From: a virus
Taxonomy: Duplodnaviria > Heunggongvirae > Uroviricota > Caudoviricetes
Length of the DNA: 64,000 nucleotides
Virus record (IMG/VR): IMGVR_UViG_2654587674_000003
Reading direction: 5' to 3' (one strand)
A model generated the notes under the pieces. It was not told the origin of the DNA, ran no database searches, and saw only the letters and a program-made list of their open reading frames with translations. Positions 2,362-62,975 of this stretch are shown one piece after another. Made by a program: the position numbers and the translations under genes. Within the stretch, counting starts at the first letter, position 1; the number at the start of each line of letters is the position of its first letter.

Positions 2362-3792
2362 TTACGGGTAAGAAATGCTGAACGTTGAAGATTTTACGTT
2401 AAGATAAATGAAGTCATTAAAGTAAACAGCATCTTTCATATTTTGTATTGTTATGTCGTAAGACAGAAACATATCCAGAGACTCTATTACTCGCCAAATA
2501 TCCTTAACTTTTACCTGTGCATAACATTGCTGGGAATCATCATCACTCTGTAGTAATAAACTGAATGATGACGAATCACGGCCAAAATTATCTTCCAACG
2601 CTGCTTTAATAGCATTTTGAGCATCGTCTATCAGAACATTTTTACGTGCAATACCTATAAAATTTATAGTAAATGGCTGTTCATTTGTATCTACATACTC
2701 GAACCGCTTGTTCAACTCATTTGGAACATTCTCTAGAGCTTTCAGTATTTCTGATTTTAGCTGAGACTGGCTTACACCCGGCTTATGTCCGCAAAAGAAA
2801 ATTTTGTTGATGTTTCGAACGTCAAACCCAGTTATTTTCTCTTGTAACGCTTCGCCCCAAACGTTCAACCATGAAGTTCCATGAACAACATTCTGAATGA
2901 ATTGGCGATAATCACCGCCCCATACCACTTGTTCATCGTATGCAACATAATACTGAGCACGATTTCGAGTTTCTTCTGTAGTTTCCATACCACTACCACC
3001 GGTAATGATCGAATCAGTTTTAAACTCTAGTGACTCCACATATTGAGCGATATTTCCAGCCGGTTCTAACTTTTGTCCTTCAGCCAAAGTATAGTCGCCA
3101 AGGCTAGCCATAACATCGATTCGAACCTGACAGCCTGCTGGAGGCATCATACCCATAGAACCATCACCAAACTTGACTCCAAGTTGTTCTGTAGGTTTAT
3201 ATGCCAATGAATAGTGCTTACTCTTGTCTCTGGACATTCTAAATAATGGGTTATATGTCCATTTTTCTTCTACTCCATCTGTAATAACATAAACATCCAG
3301 GCTAGAGACTTCTTTTGTTAACTCTCTGGAAAGCAACAATGTCAGAAATAAAGTTTCCTTCTCAATATCAAACGTAATGCTAACAGCTTCATGCTGTTTA
3401 GTTTCTACGCCAGAAACAGTTCCTCCAGCAGGAATTACAACACTGTTAATAATTGCCAAAGGTGTTTGGTCATTGGCAAGCAATTCAGCCCCGGCTGGTA
3501 ACGTAATATCCCGATCAGTTTTATTGGTTATAGACGTTGTTCCGTATGAAGCACTAACAAATCGCCCTACGTAGCTACGGTCTTCAGCAACCGCTAAAAT
3601 ACTTGAGCGGCGCGTTGCCGTTGAAATAAGTCCCTCAGTGAGGCCGCGACTTGCAAATGTACGGGCAATATAAATAAGCTGCGATCCGAATATAGCGTGC
3701 ATCTGCACAAACTGACTATTTACAAATCGTGACCACCATGTATTTTCATTTAACTTGGCGTTAAATTTGTCCAGTAATTCTGTAATCGTCAC
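2362..3792 (-). CDS. Baseplate wedge protein (J / Mu gp47-like)
   Basis: 476-aa ORF, 4-bp overlap with upstream gene; gene order. Confidence 0.45.
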   Translation of the reverse strand: MTITELLDKFNAKLNENTWWSRFVNSQFVQMHAIFGSQLIYIARTFASRGLTEGLISTATRRSSILAVAEDRSYVGRFVSASYGTTSITNKTDRDITLPAGAELLANDQTPLAIINSVVIPAGGTVSGVETKQHEAVSITFDIEKETLFLTLLLSRELTKEVSSLDVYVITDGVEEKWTYNPLFRMSRDKSKHYSLAYKPTEQLGVKFGDGSMGMMPPAGCQVRIDVMASLGDYTLAEGQKLEPAGNIAQYVESLEFKTDSIITGGSGMETTEETRNRAQYYVAYDEQVVWGGDYRQFIQNVVHGTSWLNVWGEALQEKITGFDVRNINKIFFCGHKPGVSQSQLKSEILKALENVPNELNKRFEYVDTNEQPFTINFIGIARKNVLIDDAQNAIKAALEDNFGRDSSSFSLLLQSDDDSQQCYAQVKVKDIWRVIESLDMFLSYDITIQNMKDAVYFNDFIYLNVKSSTFSISYP

Positions 3793-4163
3793 GCGCCCAC
3801 CCCACTTGATTTCTGCATAACAATATCCATGCTCCCACCTTTCGCATAAAAACTAATTAATAAAGAATCTTCAGAAATTGATGTGCAACGAATCCCCTGC
3901 ACATCCAAACCTGGCAAGTCTTGTCGTAGTTTTTTCATCATTCTCCCTTCAATAGCCACTTCAACTATGTGCGAAGTTTCAGAGCCGAATGGTTCATGCT
4001 TAAATTCTTCCATTGGACTCCCCCAAGAGGGTAAACCATAAACACTCCCTTCAGGGGTTCGTAGCCACTCGTCAAGTCGGGCCATCCATGCTGCGGTACT
4101 TCCTTCTGCAATAATGACACCGCTCTCATTCGTTTGAAGTCTTGCGTCTATTTCGTAAAGCAT
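3789..4163 (-). CDS. Small baseplate protein (gp46 / W-like)
   Basis: 124-aa ORF directly after the tape-measure gene, translationally coupled to the next gene. Confidence 0.4.
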   Translation of the reverse strand: MLYEIDARLQTNESGVIIAEGSTAAWMARLDEWLRTPEGSVYGLPSWGSPMEEFKHEPFGSETSHIVEVAIEGRMMKKLRQDLPGLDVQGIRCTSISEDSLLISFYAKGGSMDIVMQKSSGVGA

Positions 4164-18040: not shown

Positions 18041-18060
18041 TTTTAGTTTTCTAACACAAA
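18041..18060. promoter_or_regulatory. Operator-like motif TTTTCTAACACAAAT (site 1)
   Basis: Core TTTTCTAACA at 18047-18056 in the divergent intergenic region between the capsid gene and the 18072 gene. Confidence 0.5.
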
Positions 18061-28984: not shown

Positions 28985-29027
28985 CCATTTGTGTTAGAAA
29001 ATACATATTAATTATCTAACACAAATG
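28985..29027. promoter_or_regulatory. Palindromic operator pair (CATTTGTGTTAGA ... TCTAACACAAATG) immediately upstream of rdgC
   Basis: Perfect 13-bp inverted repeats 17 bp apart; each contains the TGTTAGAAAA/TTTTCTAACA family core. Confidence 0.6.
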
Positions 29028-40269: not shown

Positions 40270-40280
40270 TGTTAGAAAAC
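40270..40280. promoter_or_regulatory. Operator-like motif TGTTAGAAAAC (site 3)
   Basis: Family core overlapping the stop of the Ref-like gene. Confidence 0.45.
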
Positions 40281-40858
40281 TAATTTATCAATTCAATCGC
40301 CATCTGATACAACGCCATTTCATCGGCATTGTGCCGTATGAAATCTGCTTTTCCGCCTATTTTTCCATCAGCATGAACAGGGACCAGCCAGGGATATTGT
40401 TCTCGGACCTCGGCTGGCGCTGCGTACTGGTGGTGCCATTTACACAAAGGGAGGACATATTTATGCGCGTTCTCTGCCGTTCTCCCGAAGATATGGTGCA
40501 GGGATACTACTGGGCTATGTTGCCCGTGAATATGGCAGGCAATGCAGGGGAGAGTACCGATAGCGGTCTGTATCCGGCGTTCATCGGCTGTGAGTGATCT
40601 GCCCTTCAGGCCGCGTGACGTGCGTGTTTTTTTGGGCGGAGCGGATACAGCTTTATCTTTTCTCCGCTGTTCATATTGCTTTGCTTTTTCAATTTTCTTT
40701 TGCCGATATTCAGGCGATGCGGCTTTTTCTCTCGCTCGCTGCTGCTGGCGTTGAGCTTGTTGAAGGCGCTTTGCCCTTTGTTCCTCTCGCCAGGCCGGGT
40801 CAGCCAATTTTTGCATGGCTTTTTGTCTCTGTTTCTCCCAATAACTCTGTTTCTGCAT
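40280..40858 (-). CDS. Ref-like HNH-type endonuclease: disordered basic N-terminus + Cys/His-rich C-terminal core
   Basis: 192 aa; K/R/Q-rich first 90 residues; CIACHIHGQH...HHIFGR...CKWHH; operator-like sites upstream. Confidence 0.5.
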   Translation of the reverse strand: MQKQSYWEKQRQKAMQKLADPAWREEQRAKRLQQAQRQQQRAREKAASPEYRQKKIEKAKQYEQRRKDKAVSAPPKKTRTSRGLKGRSLTADERRIQTAIGTLPCIACHIHGQHSPVVSLHHIFGRTAENAHKYVLPLCKWHHQYAAPAEVREQYPWLVPVHADGKIGGKADFIRHNADEMALYQMAIELIN

Positions 40859-40907: not shown

Positions 40908-40936
40908 GTTAGATATTCAAAATTGATTTTCTAACA
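40908..40936. promoter_or_regulatory. Operator pair GTTAGA-n16-TCTAAC upstream of the Ref-like gene
   Basis: Inverted half-sites with the same spacing as at 28985-29027 and 46161-46188. Confidence 0.5.
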
Positions 40937-46134: not shown

Positions 46135-46160
46135 TCAAATCATTTACGCACTCAAAATGC

Positions 46161-46188
46161 GTTAGAACATTGATTTTAGTTTTCTAAC
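46161..46188. promoter_or_regulatory. Operator pair GTTAGAAC-n15-TTCTAACA upstream of the 46232 gene
   Basis: Same half-site family and spacing as sites at 28985 and 40908. Confidence 0.5.
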
Positions 46189-46231
46189 ATATTATTTTAC
46201 CGCTCGGAACAAAACAGAGTCGGTATACATT

Positions 46232-51948: not shown

Positions 51949-52200
51949 GTGTCAGATCGAAATATAGCAGCTAAAAGCCAGGAAGAGCGAGACAAGGTGA
52001 ACGTAGACCTTGCCGCCAGCGGCGTTGCTTACAAAGAACGGCTGAATATACCTGTGATTGCAGAGCAGGTGGCCCGTGAGCAACCGGAAAACCTGCGCGC
52101 CTATTTCATGGAACGGCTACGGCACTACCGGCAGTTAAGCCTCCAGTTGCCAAAAGGGAGCGATCCGGTGTATCAGAACGAGGATGCACCAAAAAAATAA
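51949..52200 (+). CDS. hot: Hot: homolog of DNA polymerase III theta subunit (HolE-like)
   Basis: [43 protein letters not shown] aligns with E. coli theta as recalled; GTG start with GGAGG. Confidence 0.7.
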
Positions 52201-52285
52201 CGGCAAGATGGGGGAGAAATGTGATTAGCCCCCAGCGTGGCGCGCCTACAAACCCCGCTTTCACAAACTATGCCTTTTCAATGTA

Positions 52286-52305
52286 TACTGTATGAATAAA
52301 CAGTA
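52286..52305 (+). promoter_or_regulatory. LexA (SOS) box upstream of humD
   Basis: TACTGTATGAATAAACAGTA fits CTGT-N8-ACAG. Confidence 0.75.
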
Positions 52306-52323
52306 TCATTGAGGTAAAACGCT

Positions 52324-52713
52324 ATGGGCTTCCCTTCTCCTGCGGCGGATTATGTTGAAAGCCGAATTTCTCTTGATCAGCAGATAATTAGACATCCTTC
52401 AGCGACCTACTTCATGCGGGCAGCTGATAGCCATCACCGTGAGGGAATATTGCAGGGTGCTTTGCTGGTGGTTGATTCCTCGCTTACTCCGGTTGATGGT
52501 TCTCTGCTTGTGTGCGCTATGGAGGGTGAATATCGCATAAAGAGATACAGGAAGTATCCGCGCCAGCACCTGGAGGACTTAAGCACCGGGAAGAAAGAGG
52601 CGTTACCAGTAGATGACGATGGATACACGGGCAGTAATGCTGTTTTTGGTGTGATCACTCATGTCATCAATGATGCCCGAAGTGGGGAATTTGATGATTG
52701 TCCGGTTATTTAA
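52324..52713 (+). CDS. humD: HumD: UmuD'-like protein
   Basis: GFPSPAADYVE...HPSATYF matches UmuD without the N-terminal arm. Confidence 0.75.
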   Translation: MGFPSPAADYVESRISLDQQIIRHPSATYFMRAADSHHREGILQGALLVVDSSLTPVDGSLLVCAMEGEYRIKRYRKYPRQHLEDLSTGKKEALPVDDDGYTGSNAVFGVITHVINDARSGEFDDCPVI

Positions 52714-52755
52714 GCTGCAAAGTGCTGGTGCTTTATGCCTGTGAAGTTTATAATT

Positions 52756-52776
52756 GTGTACACATAACGAGTACAC
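52756..52776 (+). promoter_or_regulatory. phd-doc operator palindromes (GTGTACAC ... GAGTACAC)
   Basis: Palindromic octamers just upstream of the phd RBS. Confidence 0.6.
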
Positions 52777-52785
52777 GAGGTGTTT

Positions 52786-53007
52786 ATGCAATCCATTAAC
52801 TTCCGTACCGCGCGTGGCAACCTTTCTGAAGTGCTCAACAATGTTGAAGCCGGGGAAGAGGTTGAAATCACCCGCAGAGGCCGTGAGCCAGCAGTAATTG
52901 TCAGCAAGGCTACTTTTGAAGCCTACAAAAAAGCGGCGCTGGATGCCGAATTTGCATCCCTGTTTGACACCCTGGACTCCACCAACAAGGAACTGGTTAA
53001 CCGATAA
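52786..53007 (+). CDS. phd: Phd antitoxin
   Basis: [49 protein letters not shown]... matches P1 Phd as recalled. Confidence 0.85.
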
Positions 53008-53387
53008 TGAGGCATATATCACCGGAAGAACTTATTGCGCTTCATGATGCGAATATAAGCCGCTACGGCGGCCTGCCGGGAATGTCAGATCCGGGTAGGG
53101 CAGAGGCCATTATCGGGAGAGTTCAGGCCAGAGTTGCCTACGAAGAGATCACCGACCTTTTCGAAGTCTCCGCCACCTACCTGGTGGCTACGGCGAGAGG
53201 GCATATATTCAATGATGCCAATAAGCGTACCGCGCTAAACAGTGCGCTGCTATTTCTACGCCGTAACGGTATACAGGTATATGATTCTCCCGTGCTGGTG
53301 GAACTTGCGGTGGGGGCCGCAACTGGTGAAATCCCCGTATCTTCAGTAGCGGAAAAACTACGTGAATTATTTGGTTCCAATATTTGA
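53007..53387 (+). CDS. doc: Doc toxin (Fic-family kinase)
   Basis: 126 aa; Fic-type motif HIFNDANKR; TAATG overlap with phd. Confidence 0.85.
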
Positions 53388-53390
53388 AAA

Positions 53391-53416
53391 GAAGCCCGCT
53401 CAACCAGGCGGGCTTC
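53391..53416. terminator. Hairpin between convergent doc and the minus-strand operon
   Basis: GAAGCCCGC-n8-GCGGGCTTC; T-rich on the minus-strand side. Confidence 0.6.
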
Positions 53417-53422
53417 CTACTA

Positions 53423-54517
53423 TCACTCAATGATTTTTTCTGCTGTCAGCCAGCTAATTTCTTGCCTGTCTTTCGGCGGTTTTAGCATGTGGGCGTATTC
53501 AGCGACATTCTCCCACGAAATTGTTTTTGCCCACTCAACGATAGCATTGTGATCTGCAGTGAAGAGTGGAATGGTGTGCGATTTCAACCATTCTAATGTC
53601 GTGACGCCATGTTTTTTGGCGTGGTGCTGCGCATGATGCCGGGCTATCACTCGTAATGGTATTGTCCATTCACTACCATCAGGCATCGAAAAGCGCATTG
53701 TCTTCGGCATATCTGATTCAAGAACAGCCTCCCTAATACCAGGGAACTCACCAAGAATCATACGACGATAGTCATCACTATTTCGCCCGCCATACCTTTC
53801 GGCAAAATGATCAAGATATTCTTGGGTAATAAATGGTGAATCCTCCGCACTCAGCTTAATGGCTTTATATACACCACTCGGATTATCTTCAGCTAAAGCA
53901 CGTCCATGATGTGAATCATAAAAAAAGCCTATTTCCTCTGGTGACGGAATTGAAGTGAGCAATATGCGTGAATCACCACTAGTCATGCTTGCCCACACAA
54001 TGCTGTATGCCTGATCGCTGATATGTGCGGAATCCACAATAATGAATAAAAGATGGTCGGCGTAGTGACCTGCAATGCTATCTTCATAGTTAAGGCGGAA
54101 GTTACAAAAGCACATTCCCCAAAATTCATTGAACATCAGACCGCTATCACCGACCTTAAAATACTCAATGATAAAAGGTTGTTTTTTCAGCAATGCCTCC
54201 CAACATTGCCACACATATGCAACAATTCCTCTTTTGCAAACATTTGATTTTGGATAAACAATTACTGTCCGGGAATCAGGATACATAATCGTATAAAGGG
54301 TACTAATAACAGCAAGCACTTGCGGTCGTCCGATCCCATACGGAGTGGTGACAGTAGCTTTTGCATTATTGGGCTGTATAGCTTCAACAATTTGTTGTTG
54401 CTGGTGGCTTAAATCAATATCAAACAATTCTTTTGCTGCCAGTACCCAATTGTCTTTATATTTCTCCACCAGCGACAGCCAGCGCGGATCTTTATAAATA
54501 TTGCTCTTAGTCGCCAT
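53423..54517 (-). CDS. Terminase-large-subunit ATPase-domain paralog with degenerate Walker A/B; no nuclease domain
   Basis: Colinear similarity to the pacB product (HQQQQI, FYDSHH, YGGR, GxFP) but SGHGTGKS is replaced by TPYGIGRP and LILDEASG by FIIVDSAH; ATG 54515-54517 with AAGGAAG RBS. Confidence 0.55.
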   Translation of the reverse strand: MATKSNIYKDPRWLSLVEKYKDNWVLAAKELFDIDLSHQQQQIVEAIQPNNAKATVTTPYGIGRPQVLAVISTLYTIMYPDSRTVIVYPKSNVCKRGIVAYVWQCWEALLKKQPFIIEYFKVGDSGLMFNEFWGMCFCNFRLNYEDSIAGHYADHLLFIIVDSAHISDQAYSIVWASMTSGDSRILLTSIPSPEEIGFFYDSHHGRALAEDNPSGVYKAIKLSAEDSPFITQEYLDHFAERYGGRNSDDYRRMILGEFPGIREAVLESDMPKTMRFSMPDGSEWTIPLRVIARHHAQHHAKKHGVTTLEWLKSHTIPLFTADHNAIVEWAKTISWENVAEYAHMLKPPKDRQEISWLTAEKIIE

Positions 54518-55274
54518 CTGCCACTTCCTTAACTTCTTCTTTGGCCTGTTCTGCAATCGCCGCACGGCATTTCGCCCTGGCTGTAGCGATTGCTTCAGCT
54601 CGCACATCGTCTGGAATCGTTGACGTGATATACATATCCAGTTCTTCGGCACGGAATACTGTTTGGTCCAGATATTCGCGTAGCATCCAGGTAAATTCGA
54701 AATCACACGCGATAATCTCTGCGCTACCTTCTGCACCATTTGGGAAATGAATAAATGCCTGTTTAGCCAAACCGATAACACGACATGCGGTTGCCAAAAC
54801 AGCGACAACCAGGTTTACATTTTCACACGCTACGGGCTGGTTAACGCCGGAGATTACTCCATTTAACTGTCGGTTATATGGAAGGTAGTTTGAGATGCGT
54901 TCTACGCGCCATGTGCCAGTCAGGCTGCCATTTTTAAATATAATTGGTGTAACGGATAGCCCAAGCTCGCGTATAAGTCGTTGCGCTATAGCAGGATCAT
55001 TAAACAGGTCTAATGCTACACATTCGAAAGACTGCGCAAGGGCAAACAGTTCTTCCAGAGAGTAGTCTTTGCCCCTGGCGGTGATGTAACGACGAACGCC
55101 GCTGTCTGCATCACTCCATATAGCTACGCCATGCTCTTCATTCAGCTCTTCATTAAAGCCGAGATACGTCATGATAGTGCGTTCAATCGTGTCAAACGGC
55201 AGTGACATGTCGGCGTTAACAGCCACCAGCAGGCCATTACGCAAGCGGTATTGAATTGTTTTAGTGCTTTCCAT
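54507..55274 (-). CDS. Hypothetical protein (255 aa)
   Basis: ORF in tightly packed operon. Confidence 0.5.
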   Translation of the reverse strand: MESTKTIQYRLRNGLLVAVNADMSLPFDTIERTIMTYLGFNEELNEEHGVAIWSDADSGVRRYITARGKDYSLEELFALAQSFECVALDLFNDPAIAQRLIRELGLSVTPIIFKNGSLTGTWRVERISNYLPYNRQLNGVISGVNQPVACENVNLVVAVLATACRVIGLAKQAFIHFPNGAEGSAEIIACDFEFTWMLREYLDQTVFRAEELDMYITSTIPDDVRAEAIATARAKCRAAIAEQAKEEVKEVADGD

Positions 55275-55280
55275 GTCAAA

Positions 55281-55721
55281 TCACTCCACAACAAACCAGT
55301 CACAGGCCAGCAGGTCGCCAACTGAAGGCACCCACGGAACAACTACACCTTGTGCATTTTTTAAGGCGAAATAAGCACCATACGGAACGAGGTCGCCGGG
55401 GAAATATCCCTTAATGGCTTCCATTCGTGCCGGGTACTGTCCTTCAGGAACCAGCCAGCAGAATTGGTTTTCGCCGTTCCACCCGCGTCGAGCAACTTTC
55501 TTGCCTTCCTTCAGCCACATCAGCGCGTCTGAAAAGTCGGCTGCTTCAAGGTCGATTTCTTCTTGCTGGGTGGTGATGCCACCAGCAGAAATAGTTACGC
55601 TCCCGGTAAGATTAATCATCACGCCGTTGTCATCCGTAATGATGACCGTGGTTCCATTTTTTTTGTGAGCTTTGTATTTGGGACGGAACTTAAAAAGCTC
55701 TTTCGTTGCCATGTTATTCAT
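55281..55721 (-). CDS. Hypothetical protein (146 aa)
   Basis: ORF in operon. Confidence 0.5.
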   Translation of the reverse strand: MNNMATKELFKFRPKYKAHKKNGTTVIITDDNGVMINLTGSVTISAGGITTQQEEIDLEAADFSDALMWLKEGKKVARRGWNGENQFCWLVPEGQYPARMEAIKGYFPGDLVPYGAYFALKNAQGVVVPWVPSVGDLLACDWFVVE

Positions 55722-55735
55722 AGTCTTTTCTCTGC

Positions 55736-56230
55736 TTATAACTTTTCGTACTGAAGCGGTGAACGCTTAATTTCAAAGTGGCCTTCCGATGTGCTACCAA
55801 AGCCACCAGCACCACGCTCCGTTTCGTTGAGTTCCTCAACCTCGACTAGTGAGACTTGTTCAACACGCTCAAAAATTCCTTGCATGACAGCCATTCCAGG
55901 CTTGAGACAAACGCCTTCCCCGCCTGGATCAGTAATCAGTTTTGCCATGATTTCGCCGCGATAATCGGAGTCGATAATTCCTACGCAGTTAGCCAGGCGA
56001 GTATGTTTTTTGCAGCCCAATCCTGATCGCGGATAGAGTTTCAGACACCAGCCGGGCGGGATCTCCATAGCCAGTCCGGTATACACCCACCAGCTTGAGG
56101 AAATTGCACCATTGCTATCGACGCATGGTTTTATTTCAACAGCCTCAAAATCCATCGCCGCCGATCCGGAGGTGGCATAAGCTGGAAGTTTTGCTGCCGG
56201 ATGTAGGCGTTTCACTTTTACGTAAATCAT
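55736..56230 (-). CDS. dut: dUTP diphosphatase (dUTPase)
   Basis: Motif III GIIDSDYRGE and C-terminal RGxGGFGSTS. Confidence 0.7.
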   Translation of the reverse strand: MIYVKVKRLHPAAKLPAYATSGSAAMDFEAVEIKPCVDSNGAISSSWWVYTGLAMEIPPGWCLKLYPRSGLGCKKHTRLANCVGIIDSDYRGEIMAKLITDPGGEGVCLKPGMAVMQGIFERVEQVSLVEVEELNETERGAGGFGSTSEGHFEIKRSPLQYEKL

Positions 56231-56703
56231 TGTTTTTTAGCTCTCTGCGTGAAGGTGTAAACCCGACGTTTGATATGTGGAACGGTAGGAACAGGAAGAC
56301 AGGAACTTTCAATAACTCCTTGCTCCTCCAGCGATCGCACCGCCCGCAAGAACTGCGACGTGTCGCCGCCAAACTGGCGGGCATAGGTGCTGCCGTTATG
56401 AAGTATTTGAGCTATTACCCGAGCTTTTGTCTGGCTGTCACGATATGCGAATAGCCGCACGGCCTCTTCTGGCGCAATCGCTAACTGATAGCCTTTCCCG
56501 GCACGGTGTCGAATGAATCCATGCGCCAGTAGGTTTTTGAGTTCGTTACGAGTGCGAACAGATCCGTAACCCAGGAAGTGTGGATTGATAACGACTGGCT
56601 TAAACCATTCCGTAGGTGCTTTAGCTAATAGAGCTAACAGCTTCCCGGATAATTCTGGATAGGAAGACGGGTAACAATTCAGAGATGGGTAATAAGTTTT
56701 CAC
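56227..56703 (-). CDS. Hypothetical protein, possible winged-helix (158 aa)
   Basis: 4-bp overlaps on both sides. Confidence 0.5.
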   Translation of the reverse strand: MKTYYPSLNCYPSSYPELSGKLLALLAKAPTEWFKPVVINPHFLGYGSVRTRNELKNLLAHGFIRHRAGKGYQLAIAPEEAVRLFAYRDSQTKARVIAQILHNGSTYARQFGGDTSQFLRAVRSLEEQGVIESSCLPVPTVPHIKRRVYTFTQRAKKQ

Positions 56704-57044
56704 CGACGCCCCCTTGCAGGATATCGACCGGCATTAGTATCCGGTGCAATAAAGCCGGTAGTGGGGCGAGTGAAAGCGAGATTAATCTTCTCGACCATAG
56801 TGCGATAATTTTCCTGATAGTGGGCCAGGAGTTTTTCGGCGGCAATGATGGTTACTTTCCGGACGTAGCTTTCTGCTTCCTCCAGATTTCGCCAGTTTTT
56901 TTCGAGGGTAAACACAGGGACGGCCTCAAGCCCGGTCATGATGCCGAACACAACGACAGCATGACTGTTCTTAACACCAGCGGCGAAGGTTACGGTGTAA
57001 CCATCCACCTTGAAGCGTCTTGATTCCGTGATTTGACTCTGCAA
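56700..57044 (-). CDS. Hypothetical protein (114 aa), first gene after the recombinase
   Basis: TTG start with GGAGGG RBS; operator-like site upstream. Confidence 0.5.
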   Translation of the reverse strand: MQSQITESRRFKVDGYTVTFAAGVKNSHAVVVFGIMTGLEAVPVFTLEKNWRNLEEAESYVRKVTIIAAEKLLAHYQENYRTMVEKINLAFTRPTTGFIAPDTNAGRYPARGRR

Positions 57045-57090
57045 AGCACCCTCCTAAATAGGCGAGGGTACTTTACAGCAAAGGCGTTAA

Positions 57091-57112
57091 TCTAAAAAGA
57101 TGTGTTAGAATT
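57091..57112. promoter_or_regulatory. Operator-like inverted motif TCTAAAAA-GATG-TGTTAGAA
   Basis: Family core between the recombinase stop and the next gene. Confidence 0.45.
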
Positions 57113-57117
57113 TTAAT

Positions 57118-58146
57118 TTACGAATCCATCAGGCGGCTATTAGCCCCCACAGACACGCCGCCACGGCGAAGATACCGCATAAGTGTTTCCGGTTTCTTCC
57201 AGGTTCCTTCCTGCATGATCTCCACCATAGACACCTGCTTTTCAGCCATATCAATAGCGGCCCCGACGCGTGCACTATGCCCAGTCCACGTCCGGTATCT
57301 TCCTTTGTTTGGCGTAGCATCTCTTTTATTCAGCAACACCCAGGCGTCGCTGAATATTTTCTCCATTGCAGGTGCAGTAAGGGGCGTTGTCGTAATCCTG
57401 GCCTTATTGCTACGGTGTATCGGCGGGAACAGCACCGCGTCAGGATGTTCACGAAGCCCGGAAACATCCAGCCAGTCATTCAGCACAGCAGTAGTGCGAC
57501 GGGAAAGCACCTTATCAAGCCCGGCGGCGGTCGTTATTGTCTTCGTGTGTGAAATATGTAGCGTGACAGTGTCACCTGTTTGGTCCAGATCTCCTACACG
57601 AATACGCGAGATTTCCGACATACGCATCAGCGTATTGTATGCAACAAAGAGAAAAGCCCGGTTGCGCTGGTCCACCAGCCGTTCTGACCTGGACAGCAGG
57701 ACGTCGAGCAGTTTCAGGTCGTCCCACCGCAACGGTATAGCCTGGCCTGTTCGCTCGCCTTTTTCCGTTGCCGCTTCACGCCGGATGCGCCGCATGGCCA
57801 GAGACACACTTTTATCGTCCGACAGCGGCGGGAGGCCACATTGCGAAAGCAGCATGTTAAGCATGGCATAGTGCTTATCAATGGTGGTCGAAGCCAGATC
57901 AGCATCATGCAGCTGAAGAAAATACTCGCGGGCCATCTCTGGTGAGATCGGGAACCAGGCGAGCTGGCGAGCGTGACACCATCTCGCCCAGGAGTGAAAC
58001 ACTAACCGGAGATCGCGCAAAGTATTCGGCGCGTAAGCCCCCTGGTCATTCATGAACCGCATAAAGTTTTCTGCGGCCTCCTGGTACTCTTTGCCAATGT
58101 TGCGCAGAAAACCACCGGAGCTGCCAGAGATAATTAATTTACTCAT
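57118..58146 (-). CDS. dre: Cre-like tyrosine site-specific recombinase (Dre-type)
   Basis: 342 aa colinear with P1 Cre as recalled (WFP...NMLLSQCGLPPLSDDKSVSLAMRRIR, C-terminal WTGHSARVGAAIDMA); adjacent rox-like site. Confidence 0.9.
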   Translation of the reverse strand: MSKLIISGSSGGFLRNIGKEYQEAAENFMRFMNDQGAYAPNTLRDLRLVFHSWARWCHARQLAWFPISPEMAREYFLQLHDADLASTTIDKHYAMLNMLLSQCGLPPLSDDKSVSLAMRRIRREAATEKGERTGQAIPLRWDDLKLLDVLLSRSERLVDQRNRAFLFVAYNTLMRMSEISRIRVGDLDQTGDTVTLHISHTKTITTAAGLDKVLSRRTTAVLNDWLDVSGLREHPDAVLFPPIHRSNKARITTTPLTAPAMEKIFSDAWVLLNKRDATPNKGRYRTWTGHSARVGAAIDMAEKQVSMVEIMQEGTWKKPETLMRYLRRGGVSVGANSRLMDS

Positions 58147-58298
58147 GAAACTATTTAACCTCTATATACAGATGACGCTACGCGAAAAATATAAAAATGA
58201 CAGGGTAGCTATAAGTTAATTTTCAAGATTCAAGCCTTTGATCCGAGGCACGTATTTTCAGTGATGTCAACACTGATCATCTACCCATGATTATAGCC

Positions 58299-58330
58299 TA
58301 ACTTTAAATAATGCCAATTATTTAAAGTTA
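58299..58330. other. rox-like recombination target site (14-bp inverted arms, 4-bp spacer)
   Basis: TAACTTTAAATAAT-GCCA-ATTATTTAAAGTTA, 150 bp upstream of the recombinase gene; matches my recollection of rox. Confidence 0.8.
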
Positions 58331-58429
58331 TAAAATGCCGATTTTTTTTAATCCATCATAGATTGATGATGACCAGTAACACGTTGCCTTCATGGTCTTT
58401 AATTTGCGAAGTGTGGTTTCTACGGTTGG

Positions 58430-58523
58430 TTTTCTAAAATTGATGACAAAAAATCACAGTTCGATCCTTTACTCACTCTGTTATTCGACATAAATTTGTC
58501 ATAGTAATTTTATGTTAGAAAAC
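58430..58523. promoter_or_regulatory. Two operator-like sites (TTTTCTAAAA at 58430-58439; TGTTAGAAAAC at 58513-58523) upstream of the 58541 gene
   Basis: Family core motifs in the rox-to-58541 intergenic region. Confidence 0.5.
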
Positions 58524-58540
58524 TAAATCGAGTAGGAATA

Positions 58541-59578
58541 ATGAGTAAGAAGTCGATCGAGAAAGAGTACAAACGGTTCCTGCAAACCGCTGAACGGTGG
58601 AAAGAGCTGGTGGTCGCAAACTCTGTTTTCCATGATACCAGTTATGCTGGCGAGGAATTCCGCCATGTTGCATTAACGCATGACCAAAACATATTAGAAG
58701 AAGCTGAAAAATGTCTTGCTGAATGGAAAGCCTTCGTTGACATGTGCCGCGATGCCGACGGCAAAGCGTCGAACATTGTTGAGTCTGTATATTCTCCGAT
58801 CCCATTCATCATTGAGGACACCAATCAAAGCACGCATGTCGTTGTGCAAAGCGCTACAACAACACGTACATTTACACGTGAACAATTGCTAAAAAAATAC
58901 GACAAAATCATAAAGAAAAGCCTTAAAAATAGGGTTTTTTCTCAAATCGTAGGTGATCTTGAAGAAGAACAGCGCTTCTTTGAAGCTGAGCCTGAAGGCG
59001 AGATCTACCGGGCGCGTAAAGAGGCATATACAGATGTTGTGCTGACAACAAACATCGAAGGCAGCAATGCCCTTTCTCGCTTTAGAGTTGGCGCACATGG
59101 TGCATTGGTTTTCGCAAGACTACCGAAGACAACGATCCCCGTTGTCAATAATGTTGGTGAACGCCGGAGCATTACAATTTATTCTGGCGTCGAATCGGTA
59201 CCTTGCAGCCTTCTCGGCGATTTTAACTTATATCGTGTTCGTGACCTGGAAAAACACCAGCCAAGCTATGTTGCGAAGTCGTACATCTTAAGGAACATCG
59301 ATATTCGCAATGAAAGCCTTAAGCAGAAATCCGCTAAGATGCTGGAGGATGCCGATCCGGCTATTCGCCATATCATTGAGCGTAAGATACGTACATCACG
59401 TGAAGCAATGGCAAGGCTGGATAAAATGGATCTGGAATTGTTAGACGTAATGATGGCCTCTGGAGACGACCTGACCGGCATTAAACTGAATGAAGCTCGT
59501 AAAAAATACGGCAAAGCAATCGAAGAACGTTACGGATACACATTCCCCCAAACGCAGTACGCCGCGAAGCTCTGGTAA
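58541..59578 (+). CDS. Hypothetical protein (345 aa); candidate immunity repressor by position and operator context
   Basis: Divergent from the recombinase, convergent with pacB, preceded by two operator-like sites; no sequence-level support for repressor identity. Confidence 0.55.
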   Translation: MSKKSIEKEYKRFLQTAERWKELVVANSVFHDTSYAGEEFRHVALTHDQNILEEAEKCLAEWKAFVDMCRDADGKASNIVESVYSPIPFIIEDTNQSTHVVVQSATTTRTFTREQLLKKYDKIIKKSLKNRVFSQIVGDLEEEQRFFEAEPEGEIYRARKEAYTDVVLTTNIEGSNALSRFRVGAHGALVFARLPKTTIPVVNNVGERRSITIYSGVESVPCSLLGDFNLYRVRDLEKHQPSYVAKSYILRNIDIRNESLKQKSAKMLEDADPAIRHIIERKIRTSREAMARLDKMDLELLDVMMASGDDLTGIKLNEARKKYGKAIEERYGYTFPQTQYAAKLW

Positions 59579-59605
59579 TCACAACCGGCCCCGCATCGCG
59601 GGGCT

Positions 59606-61114
59606 TTATATATCCAGATCCGGCATTTCGATATCCGCCAGAACCTGATCTCGGAAAGTTGCCATTTCGGCACCAATATCTTCATTAGCAGGCACATAGT
59701 CCACCAGCATAGTGAAGCAGTAGGTATCCCATCGGTCAGGCGATTTGATGTTTAGCTTTTGCCGCATGTGCTCTTTGCGCATCATCGCCATTTTCCCTTC
59801 TTCATTCAGTAAAAAGGGGATTTTTGACGCTTGCTCTGCCGTTTTAGGGTCACTGTCTATCCGCATACGCCCTGACTTTATGGCATCACGCGCCATAATG
59901 TTTGCGTAGGCACGCTGATTAACAAATCGCTCCCTGTCTTTGTTCGCAAACATGGGTTTTCCCCACCGAATACGTACCGGGTTCGCACCACGACGCACCA
60001 ACTGCGCACACGTATCAGAACCAAAACCATCAGCATCAACCGCGATTGTTATATTCGGGTATTTTTCCGGCGTACATTCGTTATATATGAAGTCAGCAAA
60101 GGCCAATGGGTCCATAGTGCCAGGCATCTCCATTACCTTAAAGTTAACAACGCGCCGCTTATCCCTGTGACCTGATACCTTGCAGATGTTGAGGACCGAC
60201 TTATCTCGCCCATTACCAACGTCAGCCGTTGCCACCCATCCCCAGTTTTTCTCCAACAACACCTTGCGGCGAGCAGAGCGATCGCATTCATCACGACCAA
60301 GCAAATAGCCGTTAATTTCTCGTGGGAACTGACCAAGCACCTTGACCATGTACTCAATAGAATCGCGCCCACCATATTCCAGAAGCTTCTCCTTGATGAA
60401 TTGTGGTGTGACGAACGGTGATTCTTCCGAGTTAAGAACAATTGCTGTCCAGATCCCTTTCGGGTTGTCTGGGGTTTTTGCTCGAGAATGGTGCGAATCG
60501 TAGAAATAACCACTTGGCCTTGTTGGCTGGGATAGCATCAACATCCGGTTATCTTCTTCAGTAAGAGCACCGGTCATTACGCCGATCGCCTTATCAGATA
60601 TACCAGATGCTTCATCCAGAATTAGAAGCAAATGTGCCGCGTGTTCCCCCGCCAGCGCTTCTTCGTTGCCGAGTCGATAACCTTTGCAGAGAACTTCCCA
60701 AATCCCCTTACGGGAGCGCTCATAAAACATGGTGTCAGAGAGGACAAAATAGGTCTGCAACCACCCATGACGCTTAACTGCATTCGCCCAATACTGTTTA
60801 ACGTATTTGAATACGCCTGTTTTTACCTGGCCTATCTTGTTAGCAACAATGATGACACGGGCATCGGGGAACAGGATCATAAAAATCAACAGCAACATCG
60901 CGGTAAGGGACGACTTCCCCGTTCCGTGTCCGGACGTGACGGTCGTCCTACTCCCCGTTTCCTGCACTGACTGAATGATCTGCTGCTGCTGGTGGGAGGG
61001 GAACATCCCAAAAATATCGACTACAGCCTGGGTAAAGTTGTAGCGGTATTTGATTACCATATCGCGCCAGCGTGGATCGCTGGTGACGCATTTAATCTTG
61101 CGCCCGCCAGCCAT
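59606..61114 (-). CDS. pacB: Terminase large subunit PacB-like
   Basis: 502 aa; Walker A TSGHGTGKSS, Walker B LLLILDEASG; coupled to pacA. Confidence 0.8.
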   Translation of the reverse strand: MAGGRKIKCVTSDPRWRDMVIKYRYNFTQAVVDIFGMFPSHQQQQIIQSVQETGSRTTVTSGHGTGKSSLTAMLLLIFMILFPDARVIIVANKIGQVKTGVFKYVKQYWANAVKRHGWLQTYFVLSDTMFYERSRKGIWEVLCKGYRLGNEEALAGEHAAHLLLILDEASGISDKAIGVMTGALTEEDNRMLMLSQPTRPSGYFYDSHHSRAKTPDNPKGIWTAIVLNSEESPFVTPQFIKEKLLEYGGRDSIEYMVKVLGQFPREINGYLLGRDECDRSARRKVLLEKNWGWVATADVGNGRDKSVLNICKVSGHRDKRRVVNFKVMEMPGTMDPLAFADFIYNECTPEKYPNITIAVDADGFGSDTCAQLVRRGANPVRIRWGKPMFANKDRERFVNQRAYANIMARDAIKSGRMRIDSDPKTAEQASKIPFLLNEEGKMAMMRKEHMRQKLNIKSPDRWDTYCFTMLVDYVPANEDIGAEMATFRDQVLADIEMPDLDI

Positions 61115-62478
61115 TAATCATCCTCCGGCGGTTCTATCGCGATATCATCATCTCCGGCGTCATACCCTGCATCAGATGCATCATAATCACCGTAAATTTC
61201 AGCCGTTGCCGAAGGGTCAATATCCAGCTCTTCGTCGTTGGCCTCGAATTCTCCAGCTTTACGCTCGCCATTGCGGTCGTAATCTCCGCACCCCAATTCT
61301 TCAACAATGGTTGCCACATCCGCCCGGCGCTCTGCCAGCCATTGCGGATGGTTAGCCTGAAGCGTTGCAAACTCCCTTGCCTCTTTGTCCAGCTGTTCAT
61401 CATCAACATCATTGACGTCAGAAACAGGTGGTTCGAGAAGAGTGATAGCTTTCGCCGCGCGCGCCGCGAGGATAGCCGGGACGCTGACACCCTGGCGCTC
61501 GATGTATTCAGCAACACCGATATCATCCAGTTCCTCGCGCTCACGCATACGTATAGCGGCGGCGATAACTCTGGCTGCGCGTGCGTCAGCGCCAATGCGA
61601 TATTCAATCTCTTTGCCACGCTGTTCGGCCTGTAGGCGTGCTAATTCGAGTTTTTCTCTGGCCTCAGCCTCTTTGAATGCTTGCTGGCGAGCGCTCTGAC
61701 GAAGCTTTTCATCCCCCTGTCGCAGCTTTTGTTCGGACTGATATATAGCTGCCAACCTACTGATAAAATCATTCATGTAGTAGGCCGCGTCACTGATTAG
61801 ACCGAGAAGGCGCTGCCCAGGGTGCATTCCTTCTGGCTCTTTATCGCCCAAGGCGTCTATTTCCGCCTGTAGACGTTCGGCCTCCTGATCAACAATGCTT
61901 TGATACTGAAGTGCGCGCTCTTGCGCCATTTGAATTGCTAACCGCAGGTGTTCTTCTGCGCCGTTCTTCATCATATCGCGAGCCACATTCGTAGTTGGCA
62001 ATGTGGCACGCTGCACAGCACCGTCAGGGATCATTGCAGAAGATCCCTCAATTTTTGGGGCGTTTTTATCTTCTTCGGGGATCATTTTCGCCATTTTTTC
62101 GCGCAATGATCTCCTGACAGATTCTTTTATCTCATTGTTATTATTTGAATTATTTTCATGATCCGAAGTTTTCTTTCTCGGCATACTTCGGAAAGAACCT
62201 GCGCCCTGCGAATTGTCAATTTCTGTAAATTTTGTTTTTTCTGCACCCTCTTCCAGCTTTTTTGTTGCTCTTCCCGCCCGTTTTTTTTCAGGTGATTTGG
62301 TGCTTTTTTTTGTTGTCTTTACCTGCGACCGCACCTCATTTTTTTTCATATTGAGATGCTTTCTGGCTGTATTGAAGCTAAGGCCATGCTCCTCACAGTA
62401 TTCCTTTACAGTGATCCCTTTTTCTTCACGCAACGCTATAAAGCGGGCGCGGTGCTCCTCCCAATTAACCAGACTCAT
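61114..62478 (-). CDS. pacA: Terminase small / pac-recognition subunit PacA-like
   Basis: N-terminal HTH (ITVKEYCEEHGLSFNTARKHL), coiled-coil middle, acidic C-terminus. Confidence 0.7.
   Translation of the reverse strand: MSLVNWEEHRARFIALREEKGITVKEYCEEHGLSFNTARKHLNMKKNEVRSQVKTTKKSTKSPEKKRAGRATKKLEEGAEKTKFTEIDNSQGAGSFRSMPRKKTSDHENNSNNNNEIKESVRRSLREKMAKMIPEEDKNAPKIEGSSAMIPDGAVQRATLPTTNVARDMMKNGAEEHLRLAIQMAQERALQYQSIVDQEAERLQAEIDALGDKEPEGMHPGQRLLGLISDAAYYMNDFISRLAAIYQSEQKLRQGDEKLRQSARQQAFKEAEAREKLELARLQAEQRGKEIEYRIGADARAARVIAAAIRMREREELDDIGVAEYIERQGVSVPAILAARAAKAITLLEPPVSDVNDVDDEQLDKEAREFATLQANHPQWLAERRADVATIVEELGCGDYDRNGERKAGEFEANDEELDIDPSATAEIYGDYDASDAGYDAGDDDIAIEPPEDD
61887..62163. other. 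GATC-rich segment inside pacA; candidate pac cleavage site
   Basis: Six GATC in about 277 bp (61887, 62029, 62042, 62080, 62108, 62160), five of them in 135 bp. Confidence 0.35.
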
Positions 62479-62867: not shown

Positions 62868-62975
62868 TAATCCCCCGGGCAGGAAATGACCGAGGGGATG
62901 ATAATGAGAATGTTAAAACTGTATAGACTGGTAAAAAGATGATTGTATTAGAAAATTAATACTAAATATCTAATG

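Follow-up and report, generated by a model that had tools for sequence, protein, structure and literature searches.

The window analysed here, a stretch of 64,000 nucleotides from the IMG/VR virus record IMGVR_UViG_2654587674_000003, is identified by its similarity to phage D6 as part of a D6-like Escherichia coli phage-plasmid. Directly downstream of its gene for a Cre-like recombinase, dre, lies a compact series of minus-strand genes that is likely to be a non-structural accessory operon of D6-type plasmid prophages, made up of the counterparts of D6 orf117-orf113 plus one extra gene. Two of the products belong to well characterized families: a trimeric dUTPase and, by homology, a signal sponge of the Tad2 family. 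The components of the unit are as follows, in the order in which they would be transcribed.

57118-58146, minus strand: dre, a Cre-like tyrosine recombinase of 342 amino acids (PF00589, expected value (E) 1.2e-16)
56700-57044, minus strand: g114 (D6 orf117), 114 amino acids, with a TTG start and AGGAGG 5 nt upstream
56227-56703, minus strand: g158 (D6 orf116), 158 amino acids (phrog_6669, E 2e-97)
55736-56230, minus strand: dut (D6 orf115), a trimeric dUTPase of 164 amino acids (PF00692)
55281-55721, minus strand: a tad2-like gene (D6 orf114), 146 amino acids (PF11195)
54507-55274, minus strand: an isaA-like gene (D6 orf113), 255 amino acids, whose product resembles P1 IsaA
53423-54517, minus strand: a paralog of the PacB N-terminal domain (PacB-N), the last gene of the unit, 364 amino acids from its ATG (phrog_5902)
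53394-53409, minus strand: a terminator-like hairpin with a T-rich tail, 14 nt past the last stop codon

A preliminary description of this region had listed genes of 114, 158, 164, 146 and 255 amino acids, tightly packed on the minus strand after the Cre-like recombinase, and our coordinates and gene junctions agree with it. From dre downstream the junctions measure +73, -4, -4, +14, +6 and -11 nt. We regard all six genes downstream of dre as real, because each has a PHROG family match with E 4e-48 or better and the same five open reading frames (ORFs) are annotated in D6. The gene lengths and the coupling also uphold the operon proposed earlier, but not its limit of five genes, since the transcription unit probably runs on into the sixth, the PacB-N paralog.

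Between positions 54534 and 58200 the window is 97.3% identical in nucleotide sequence to phage D6 over 3,667 nt (Escherichia phage D6, GenBank MF356679 / NC_050154; Gilcrease & Casjens 2018). The order, lengths and strand of dre, the 114 and 158 amino acid genes, dut, the 146 amino acid DUF2829 gene and the isaA-like gene are the same as in D6 orf113-orf118, and the proteins are 97-99% identical between the two; the dre product is 99% identical to D6 Dre and 41% identical to P1 Cre. The homology ends at position 54534. At that point D6 has a short pdcA-like gene on the opposite strand, whereas the window carries the 364 amino acid PacB N-domain paralog, coupled to isaA and absent from D6. More than 100 plasmids in PLSDB share at least 80% of positions 52000-61200, and at least 117 contain at least 80% of the dut-tad2-isaA segment. 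The operon itself is already published, as it is annotated in the D6 genome, and the presence of a counter-defence gene near the recombinase is already in the literature in the form of a homology screen: a 2025 preprint on clinical phage-plasmids reports Tad2 (anti-Thoeris) for 93% of the D6-like and 56% of the P1-like elements (10.1101/2025.09.12.675607). The locus is to that extent largely ordinary, consisting of one Tad2, one ordinary dUTPase and a remainder of conserved genes with no assigned function.

The 146 amino acid protein matches PF11195 (DUF2829) over residues 62-145 with a score of 81.6 bits, for a gathering cut-off of 25. Its sponge domain occupies amino acids 58-146 and matches MoTad2 (PDB 9eib) at E 8e-21; further Tad2 structures matched are 8v3e, 8kbi (HgmTad2) and 8sme (SPO1 Tad2). 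Among the proteins tested in 10.1101/2025.08.24.671296 its nearest relative is Tad2_68, with 68% identity over 82 residues, and its identity to MoTad2 is 46%. The exact 146 amino acid protein was not found in the supplementary tables of that sponge paper. Tad2_68 is recorded as inhibitory to Thoeris of type II (liquid and plaque assays) and of type I (plaque assay), and shows no inhibition of type IV Thoeris, of two CBASS systems or of Pycsar (Table S2, 10.1101/2025.08.24.671296); MoTad2 sequesters His-ADPR and cUMP/cCMP. In HgmTad2 the ligand contacts are W21/N22/G23 and W87/S90/D93, and gcADPR is touched by these segments (10.1101/2023.11.15.567273). The corresponding pocket motifs are intact in the window protein, with GWNG at 80-83 and W130, S133 and D136 in a W-x-P-S-x-x-D arrangement, and the C-terminal W..PS..D..DW motifs of the family are conserved as well. 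The position of HgmTad2 T92 is occupied by Gly in the window protein and by Ser in MoTad2. In the Tad2 family a homotetramer builds these pockets. On this homology we assign the 146 amino acid protein to the Tad2 family of signal sponges, and we infer from it the class of ligand that the protein would bind. Like SPO1 Tad2, HgmTad2/AcrIIA7, MoTad2 and Tad2_68, it has a DUF2829 domain far above threshold and keeps the GWNG loop; unlike them, it has 57 extra N-terminal residues, the remnant of a two-domain form of 225 amino acids.

Comparison with longer tad2 alleles in the loci of two relatives (3248-3925 and 3248-3898) places this remnant precisely: the allele of the window and of D6 is a clean in-frame deletion of 237 bp that removes the 79 amino acid N-domain of the 225 amino acid form. 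A Pfam match for the lost N-domain was not found. Among the elements compared, Tad2 proteins are 146, 157, 211, 216, 225 or 281 amino acids long. D6 and other plasmids have the short 146 amino acid allele with 99-100% identity. The allele of a Klebsiella element has its nearest match, at 54% identity, in Tad2_71, which inhibits Thoeris generally, and in the MINF_7C allele the ligand loop GWNG has become EWKG.

The gene preceding tad2 had been called a dUTPase, and this holds. Its 164 amino acid product matches PF00692 at E 1.7e-14, exceeds the NCBIfam cut-offs of NF001862 (121.5 bits for a cut-off of 103) and TIGR00576 (119.2 for 102.55), and aligns end to end with PDB 8y1q at E 2e-25, with the PRSG, GIIDSDYRGE and RGAGGFGST motifs in register. 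By these matches it is an ordinary homotrimeric dUTPase, sharing a full-length match and the catalytic motifs with E. coli Dut (PDB 1dud) and 8y1q and differing from them in a 16-residue C-terminal tail past motif V; there is otherwise nothing notable about it. A role for the dUTPase in defence was considered and set aside: no evidence was found in its favour, and the active site is intact and of the housekeeping type. In the unrelated Bacillus phage JL (Herelleviridae), a dUTPase gene is followed directly by a gene for a 90 amino acid Tad2 homolog at 918-1788, which is the dut-then-tad2 order of the window. This adjacency may be a coincidence or a recurring linkage.

The products of g114, g158 and isaA gave no significant PDB match by sequence search, and the homolog searches show that the uncharacterized protein families of the operon are tiny (9, 17 and 14 clusters). 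For g158, neither the window protein nor eight close homologs matched Pfam, and a PDB profile search returned nothing significant. Its Pantoea ortholog (24% identity, E 5e-6) is annotated as a helix-turn-helix protein and matches MarR_2 at E 2e-5, as well as other winged-helix models, all below threshold. An invariant HIKRR-x-YT segment runs through the family (PHIKRRVYTFT in the window protein), and in our own reading it resembles the wing of a winged-helix domain. The g158 product is thus probably a tandem winged-helix DNA-binding protein, a function that should be regarded as putative. The g114 protein is predicted to consist of a four-strand beta-meander and two helices with a basic, disordered tail. 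AlphaFold2 models of g114 and IsaA were of moderate confidence and their fold matches were weak and generic only, so that neither protein matched anything characterized by sequence or by fold. An exhaustive profile search with IsaA yielded 40 representatives. When 22 sequences were compared with Pfam, no family was hit by more than a single sequence. Wherever Tad2 occurs in P1-like or D6-like elements, IsaA follows it directly on the 3' side. In P1, CRISPR interference showed isaA to be non-essential and dispensable for plaque formation (PMC10695390).

A terminase paralog had been placed at the end of the operon, and the last gene conforms to this: its product aligns with amino acids 10-264 of the 502 amino acid PacB-like protein of the window with 37% identity over 258 amino acids (E 7e-57). 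In this 364 amino acid paralog the Walker A residues GKS are replaced by GRP and the Walker B residues DE by VD, the nuclease domain is missing, and the last 100 amino acids are unrelated to PacB. Because the Walker residues are replaced and the nuclease domain is missing, we conclude from the sequence that the protein is not a functional terminase and that its ATPase site is degenerate. About 34 PLSDB plasmids have the paralog, which overlaps isaA by 11 nt and is coupled to it in translation. Convergent to it, on the plus strand at 51949-53387, lie hot (theta-subunit-like), humD (a UmuD-like S24 peptidase) and a phd/doc toxin-antitoxin pair, in D6 and P1 alike.

Variability of the region was assessed in nine D6-like elements whose Dre proteins range from 99% down to 55% identity. 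All nine have g114, g158 and isaA, and the divergence of these genes is roughly in step with that of Dre. The content of the slot between g158 and isaA differs among the elements:

dut and tad2: the window, D6, pUTAK-25-1, MINF_7C and a Klebsiella element
dut only: S. Typhi pK91, Raoultella and Pantoea
tad2 only: Enterobacter

Beyond isaA the elements differ again, having pdcA, the PacB-N paralog, an ars operon or hicAB. Insertion sequence (IS) elements in several relatives, and a group II intron, are inserted in the region. An extra gene of 289 amino acids lies between dre and g114 in the Klebsiella element, and one of 152 amino acids follows g114 in Pantoea. The locus as seen in these comparisons is a conserved frame, g114-g158-isaA, with dut, tad2 and the distal gene as variable inserts. 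The proposal that it is a variable defence or counter-defence locus is therefore partly supported, in that there is one bona fide member of a counter-defence family, Tad2, in a modestly variable slot; the remainder of the proposal is not supported, as most of the operon (g114, g158 and isaA) belongs to every element compared and no defence gene is included. Only Tad2 is supported as counter-defence, by its homology.

Expression of the operon has to be considered together with the region on the far side of dre, which contains a divergent repressor gene and the Dre target site, and with the gap between dre and g114. The features concerned are these.

58541-59578, plus strand: a C1-like prophage repressor gene, divergent from dre, 345 amino acids
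58513-58528, minus strand: a perfect copy of the motif ATTTAGTTTTCTAACA (0 mismatches, 33 bits), just upstream of the C1-like gene and directed toward rox and dre
58299-58330, no strand assigned: the rox site (Dre target), with perfect inverted arms of 14 nt and a 4-nt spacer, from the repeat search and the D6 rox annotation
58317-58290, minus strand: a sigma-70-like promoter overlapping rox, TTGGCA, 16 nt, TATAAT (11/12 match)
57103-57117, minus strand: an operator-like site immediately past the stop codon of dre, with the core TTCTAACA at 57110-57103 and a degenerate upstream half
57039-57078, minus strand: a 15-bp RNA hairpin identified by folding, whose 3' arm holds the Shine-Dalgarno sequence and TTG start of g114

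The C1-like protein matches NF041318 phage_rep_C1 at E 6e-6, below the cut-off; D6 orf1 is annotated as 'prophage repressor, similar to P1 C1', and orthologs carry PF27008 Phage_P7_repressor_C1. Control of the P1 type was rejected, since the 17-bp P1 C1 operator consensus, ATTGCTCTAATAAATTT, gave no match at up to three mismatches anywhere in the 64 kb. A repeat search of the locus found only the rox site, and Dre bound there could influence how dre and the operon that follows are transcribed. Across the window, the 16-mer ATTTAGTTTTCTAACA has five matches at up to three mismatches, where 0.67 would be expected, and none of 100 shuffles reached five. The copies are intergenic and most are directed at the next gene. 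They lie at 18041-18056 (plus), 40270-40285 (minus), 40921-40936 (plus) and 58513-58528 (minus), with a weaker core near 62953 (minus); divergent pairs are seen at 28992-28999 (minus) with 29015-29021 (plus), and at 46174-46189 (plus) with 46160-46167 (minus). The motif differs from the P1 C1 operator, and the set probably represents the operators of the D6-type C1-like repressor.

The preliminary description had put the operon under an operator-like site. The site in the gap does belong to a real repeated motif, ATTTAGTTTTCTAACA, but it is a weak member, scoring below half of the strong sites. No ATTTAGTTTTCTAACA match at up to three mismatches occurs in the dre-g114 gap; when about 128,000 positions are scored with a matrix derived from six strong sites, the gap site comes 8th, at 16 bits compared with 33-43 for the strong sites. 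Its core, TTCTAACA, is conserved in D6, pUTAK-25-1, MINF_7C and pK91. By our own reading of the sequence the core is flanked by a weak -35-like TTAAAA and a -10-like TAGATT (8/12 matches), and this -10-like hexamer lies 8 nt from the core, as at two of the strong sites; a sigma-70 scan of the gap gave nothing at the threshold of the tool. The hairpin over the start of g114 has a predicted stability of -26.6 kcal/mol (z -4.55), which none of 200 shuffles equalled. It is kept in five Escherichia and Salmonella relatives and not in Pantoea, with almost no covariation, and Rfam identified nothing in 53000-58700. The hairpin may act in translational control or mark a site of RNA processing.

Three observations make early, repressor-controlled expression plausible: the conserved gap core, the placing of P1 ssb-isaA under the operator Ossb, and the occurrence of the SJ46 tad2-isaA pair in that same unit. 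Repressor control of the operon, together with translational damping by the hairpin, is plausible. Transcription would most likely come from the dre side, by read-through from the rox promoter, from a weak promoter in the 73-bp gap, or from both. The weak gap promoter would overlap a degenerate copy of the repeated operator motif, so that absence of the C1-like repressor might turn the operon on, and the conserved hairpin that covers the ribosome-binding site of g114 may lower translation. Once made, the Tad2 sponge would by homology sequester the signals produced by the TIR proteins of Thoeris (His-ADPR and/or 3'cADPR), and the ThsA effector would not be triggered. The trimeric dUTPase would hydrolyse dUTP and keep uracil out of the replicating element, the g158 product might bind DNA through its putative winged-helix domains, and the PacB N-domain paralog is predicted to be dead as an ATPase.

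That the operon is accessory and non-essential in character is indicated by the dispensability of isaA in P1 and by the IS elements or intron that relatives bear here. Several points weigh against this interpretation. No function can be assigned to three of the six products, so 'accessory operon' names a setting for the unit as a whole and not a mechanism. In the gap, the operator-like site is weak for its motif and the promoter-like hexamers agree at only 8 of 12 positions. The window Tad2 allele lacks the 79 amino acid N-domain that most relatives have, and Tad2 specificity is unreadable from sequence: members of the family inhibit Thoeris I, II or IV, CBASS/Pycsar, or nothing tested (10.1101/2025.08.24.671296). 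The opposite possibility, that the operon holds conserved morphogenetic genes, draws on the proximity of pacA and pacB and on the terminase-like paralog at the end of the unit. It is effectively refuted and we give it next to no credence, since none of the proteins looks like a part of the virion or of its assembly machinery, P1 does not need isaA to form plaques, relatives tolerate both IS elements and missing genes here, and the PacB paralog, which D6 itself does not have, possesses neither catalytic Walker residues nor a nuclease domain. The preliminary description would have been overturned by conserved morphogenetic genes with no variability among relatives; what we find is an operon that is not morphogenetic and whose gene content varies.

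Two other explanations deserve more consideration. The whole operon could be a multi-gene counter-defence island in which g114, g158, Dut, IsaA and PacB-N each neutralise host immunity. Such an island would account for Tad2 and IsaA travelling together in P1-like and D6-like elements, for the early or repressor-controlled context of the unit in P1, for dut and tad2 acting as interchangeable cargo between g158 and isaA, and for the recurrence of dut followed by tad2 in the unrelated phage JL; small, non-essential genes with narrow families are also typical of anti-defence genes. It is unlikely nonetheless, as g114, g158 and isaA occur in every relative examined, down to Pantoea, and roughly track Dre rather than turning over, none of their products matches a known anti-defence protein by sequence or fold, g158 resembles a DNA-binding regulator, and Dut has the intact active site of a housekeeping enzyme. 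A more speculative variant, which we hold to be a long shot, makes the g114-g158-...-IsaA frame a holder for counter-defence cargo whose members are themselves new anti-defence proteins, with PacB-N serving to distract or block host sensors of the large terminase. Alternatively, the unit might be a housekeeping module of plasmid prophages, tied to Dre and devoted to DNA metabolism or to the establishment or maintenance of lysogeny, with Tad2 a decaying passenger that the deletion of its N-domain would have inactivated or brought a step nearer to loss. The tad2 gene is missing from 3 of the 9 relatives, the window has a deletion derivative, and in the allele of one relative the ligand loop reads EWKG in place of GWNG; on the other hand, the deletion is exactly in frame and leaves a complete sponge domain (proven Tad2 proteins have only 87-90 amino acids), the ligand-contact motifs are intact, the short allele is held at 99-100% identity in D6 and other plasmids, and Tad2 is reported for 93% of D6-like elements (10.1101/2025.09.12.675607). 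The constant synteny of g114-g158-(dut)-isaA with dre, from Escherichia to Pantoea, and the DNA-metabolism and maintenance genes hot, humD and phd/doc next door fit such a module; we think it improbable overall. We thus favour a non-structural accessory operon behind Dre, in which Tad2 is the member with a counter-defence assignment.

Clinical E. coli, Shigella and Salmonella commonly carry D6-like or P1-like phage-plasmids, whose anti-defence cargo helps to set which hosts these elements enter and persist in. The locus shows a site of such cargo in D6-type elements and several ways in which the cargo changes: gene gain and loss, replacement of alleles in the specificity region of the sponge, in-frame deletion of a domain, and exchange with P1-like elements.

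The region next to the recombinase had been equated with the slot that holds the restriction-modification genes in P1. In P1 the order after cre is c8, ref and mat, followed by the convergent res/mod genes. The likeness of the window operon to the P1 cre-proximal region (cra, cre, c8, ref, mat, res, mod) lies in its position relative to lox/rox and the recombinase and in its content of non-essential accessory genes. It is positional only: no operon protein is homologous to P1 c8, Ref, Mat, Res or Mod, and the window operon differs from the P1 region in containing no restriction-modification or other defence gene. PADLOC found no significant defence match among the seven proteins examined, the best values being E 0.017-0.051. 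By gene content, the true P1 counterpart of the tad2-isaA pair follows ssb and not cre. The P1-like phage SJ46 has the order lys, ssb, a gene for a 281 amino acid DUF2829 protein, and isaA, while P1 itself has ssb-isaA-IS1-isaB under the C1 operator Ossb and no DUF2829 gene. The SJ46 unit thus shares the tad2-isaA pair with the window, its tad2 being 86% identical in protein and 93-94% in nucleotides; it differs in genome position (after lys/ssb) and in its IsaA, which is only 48% identical. Window positions 55234-55604, covering the 3' part of tad2 and the first codons of isaA, are 93-95% identical in nucleotide sequence to SJ46 and RCS47. Because tad2 is so similar in nucleotide sequence while the adjacent IsaA has diverged so far, the comparison suggests a recent exchange of a tad2 segment between P1-like and D6-like phage-plasmids.

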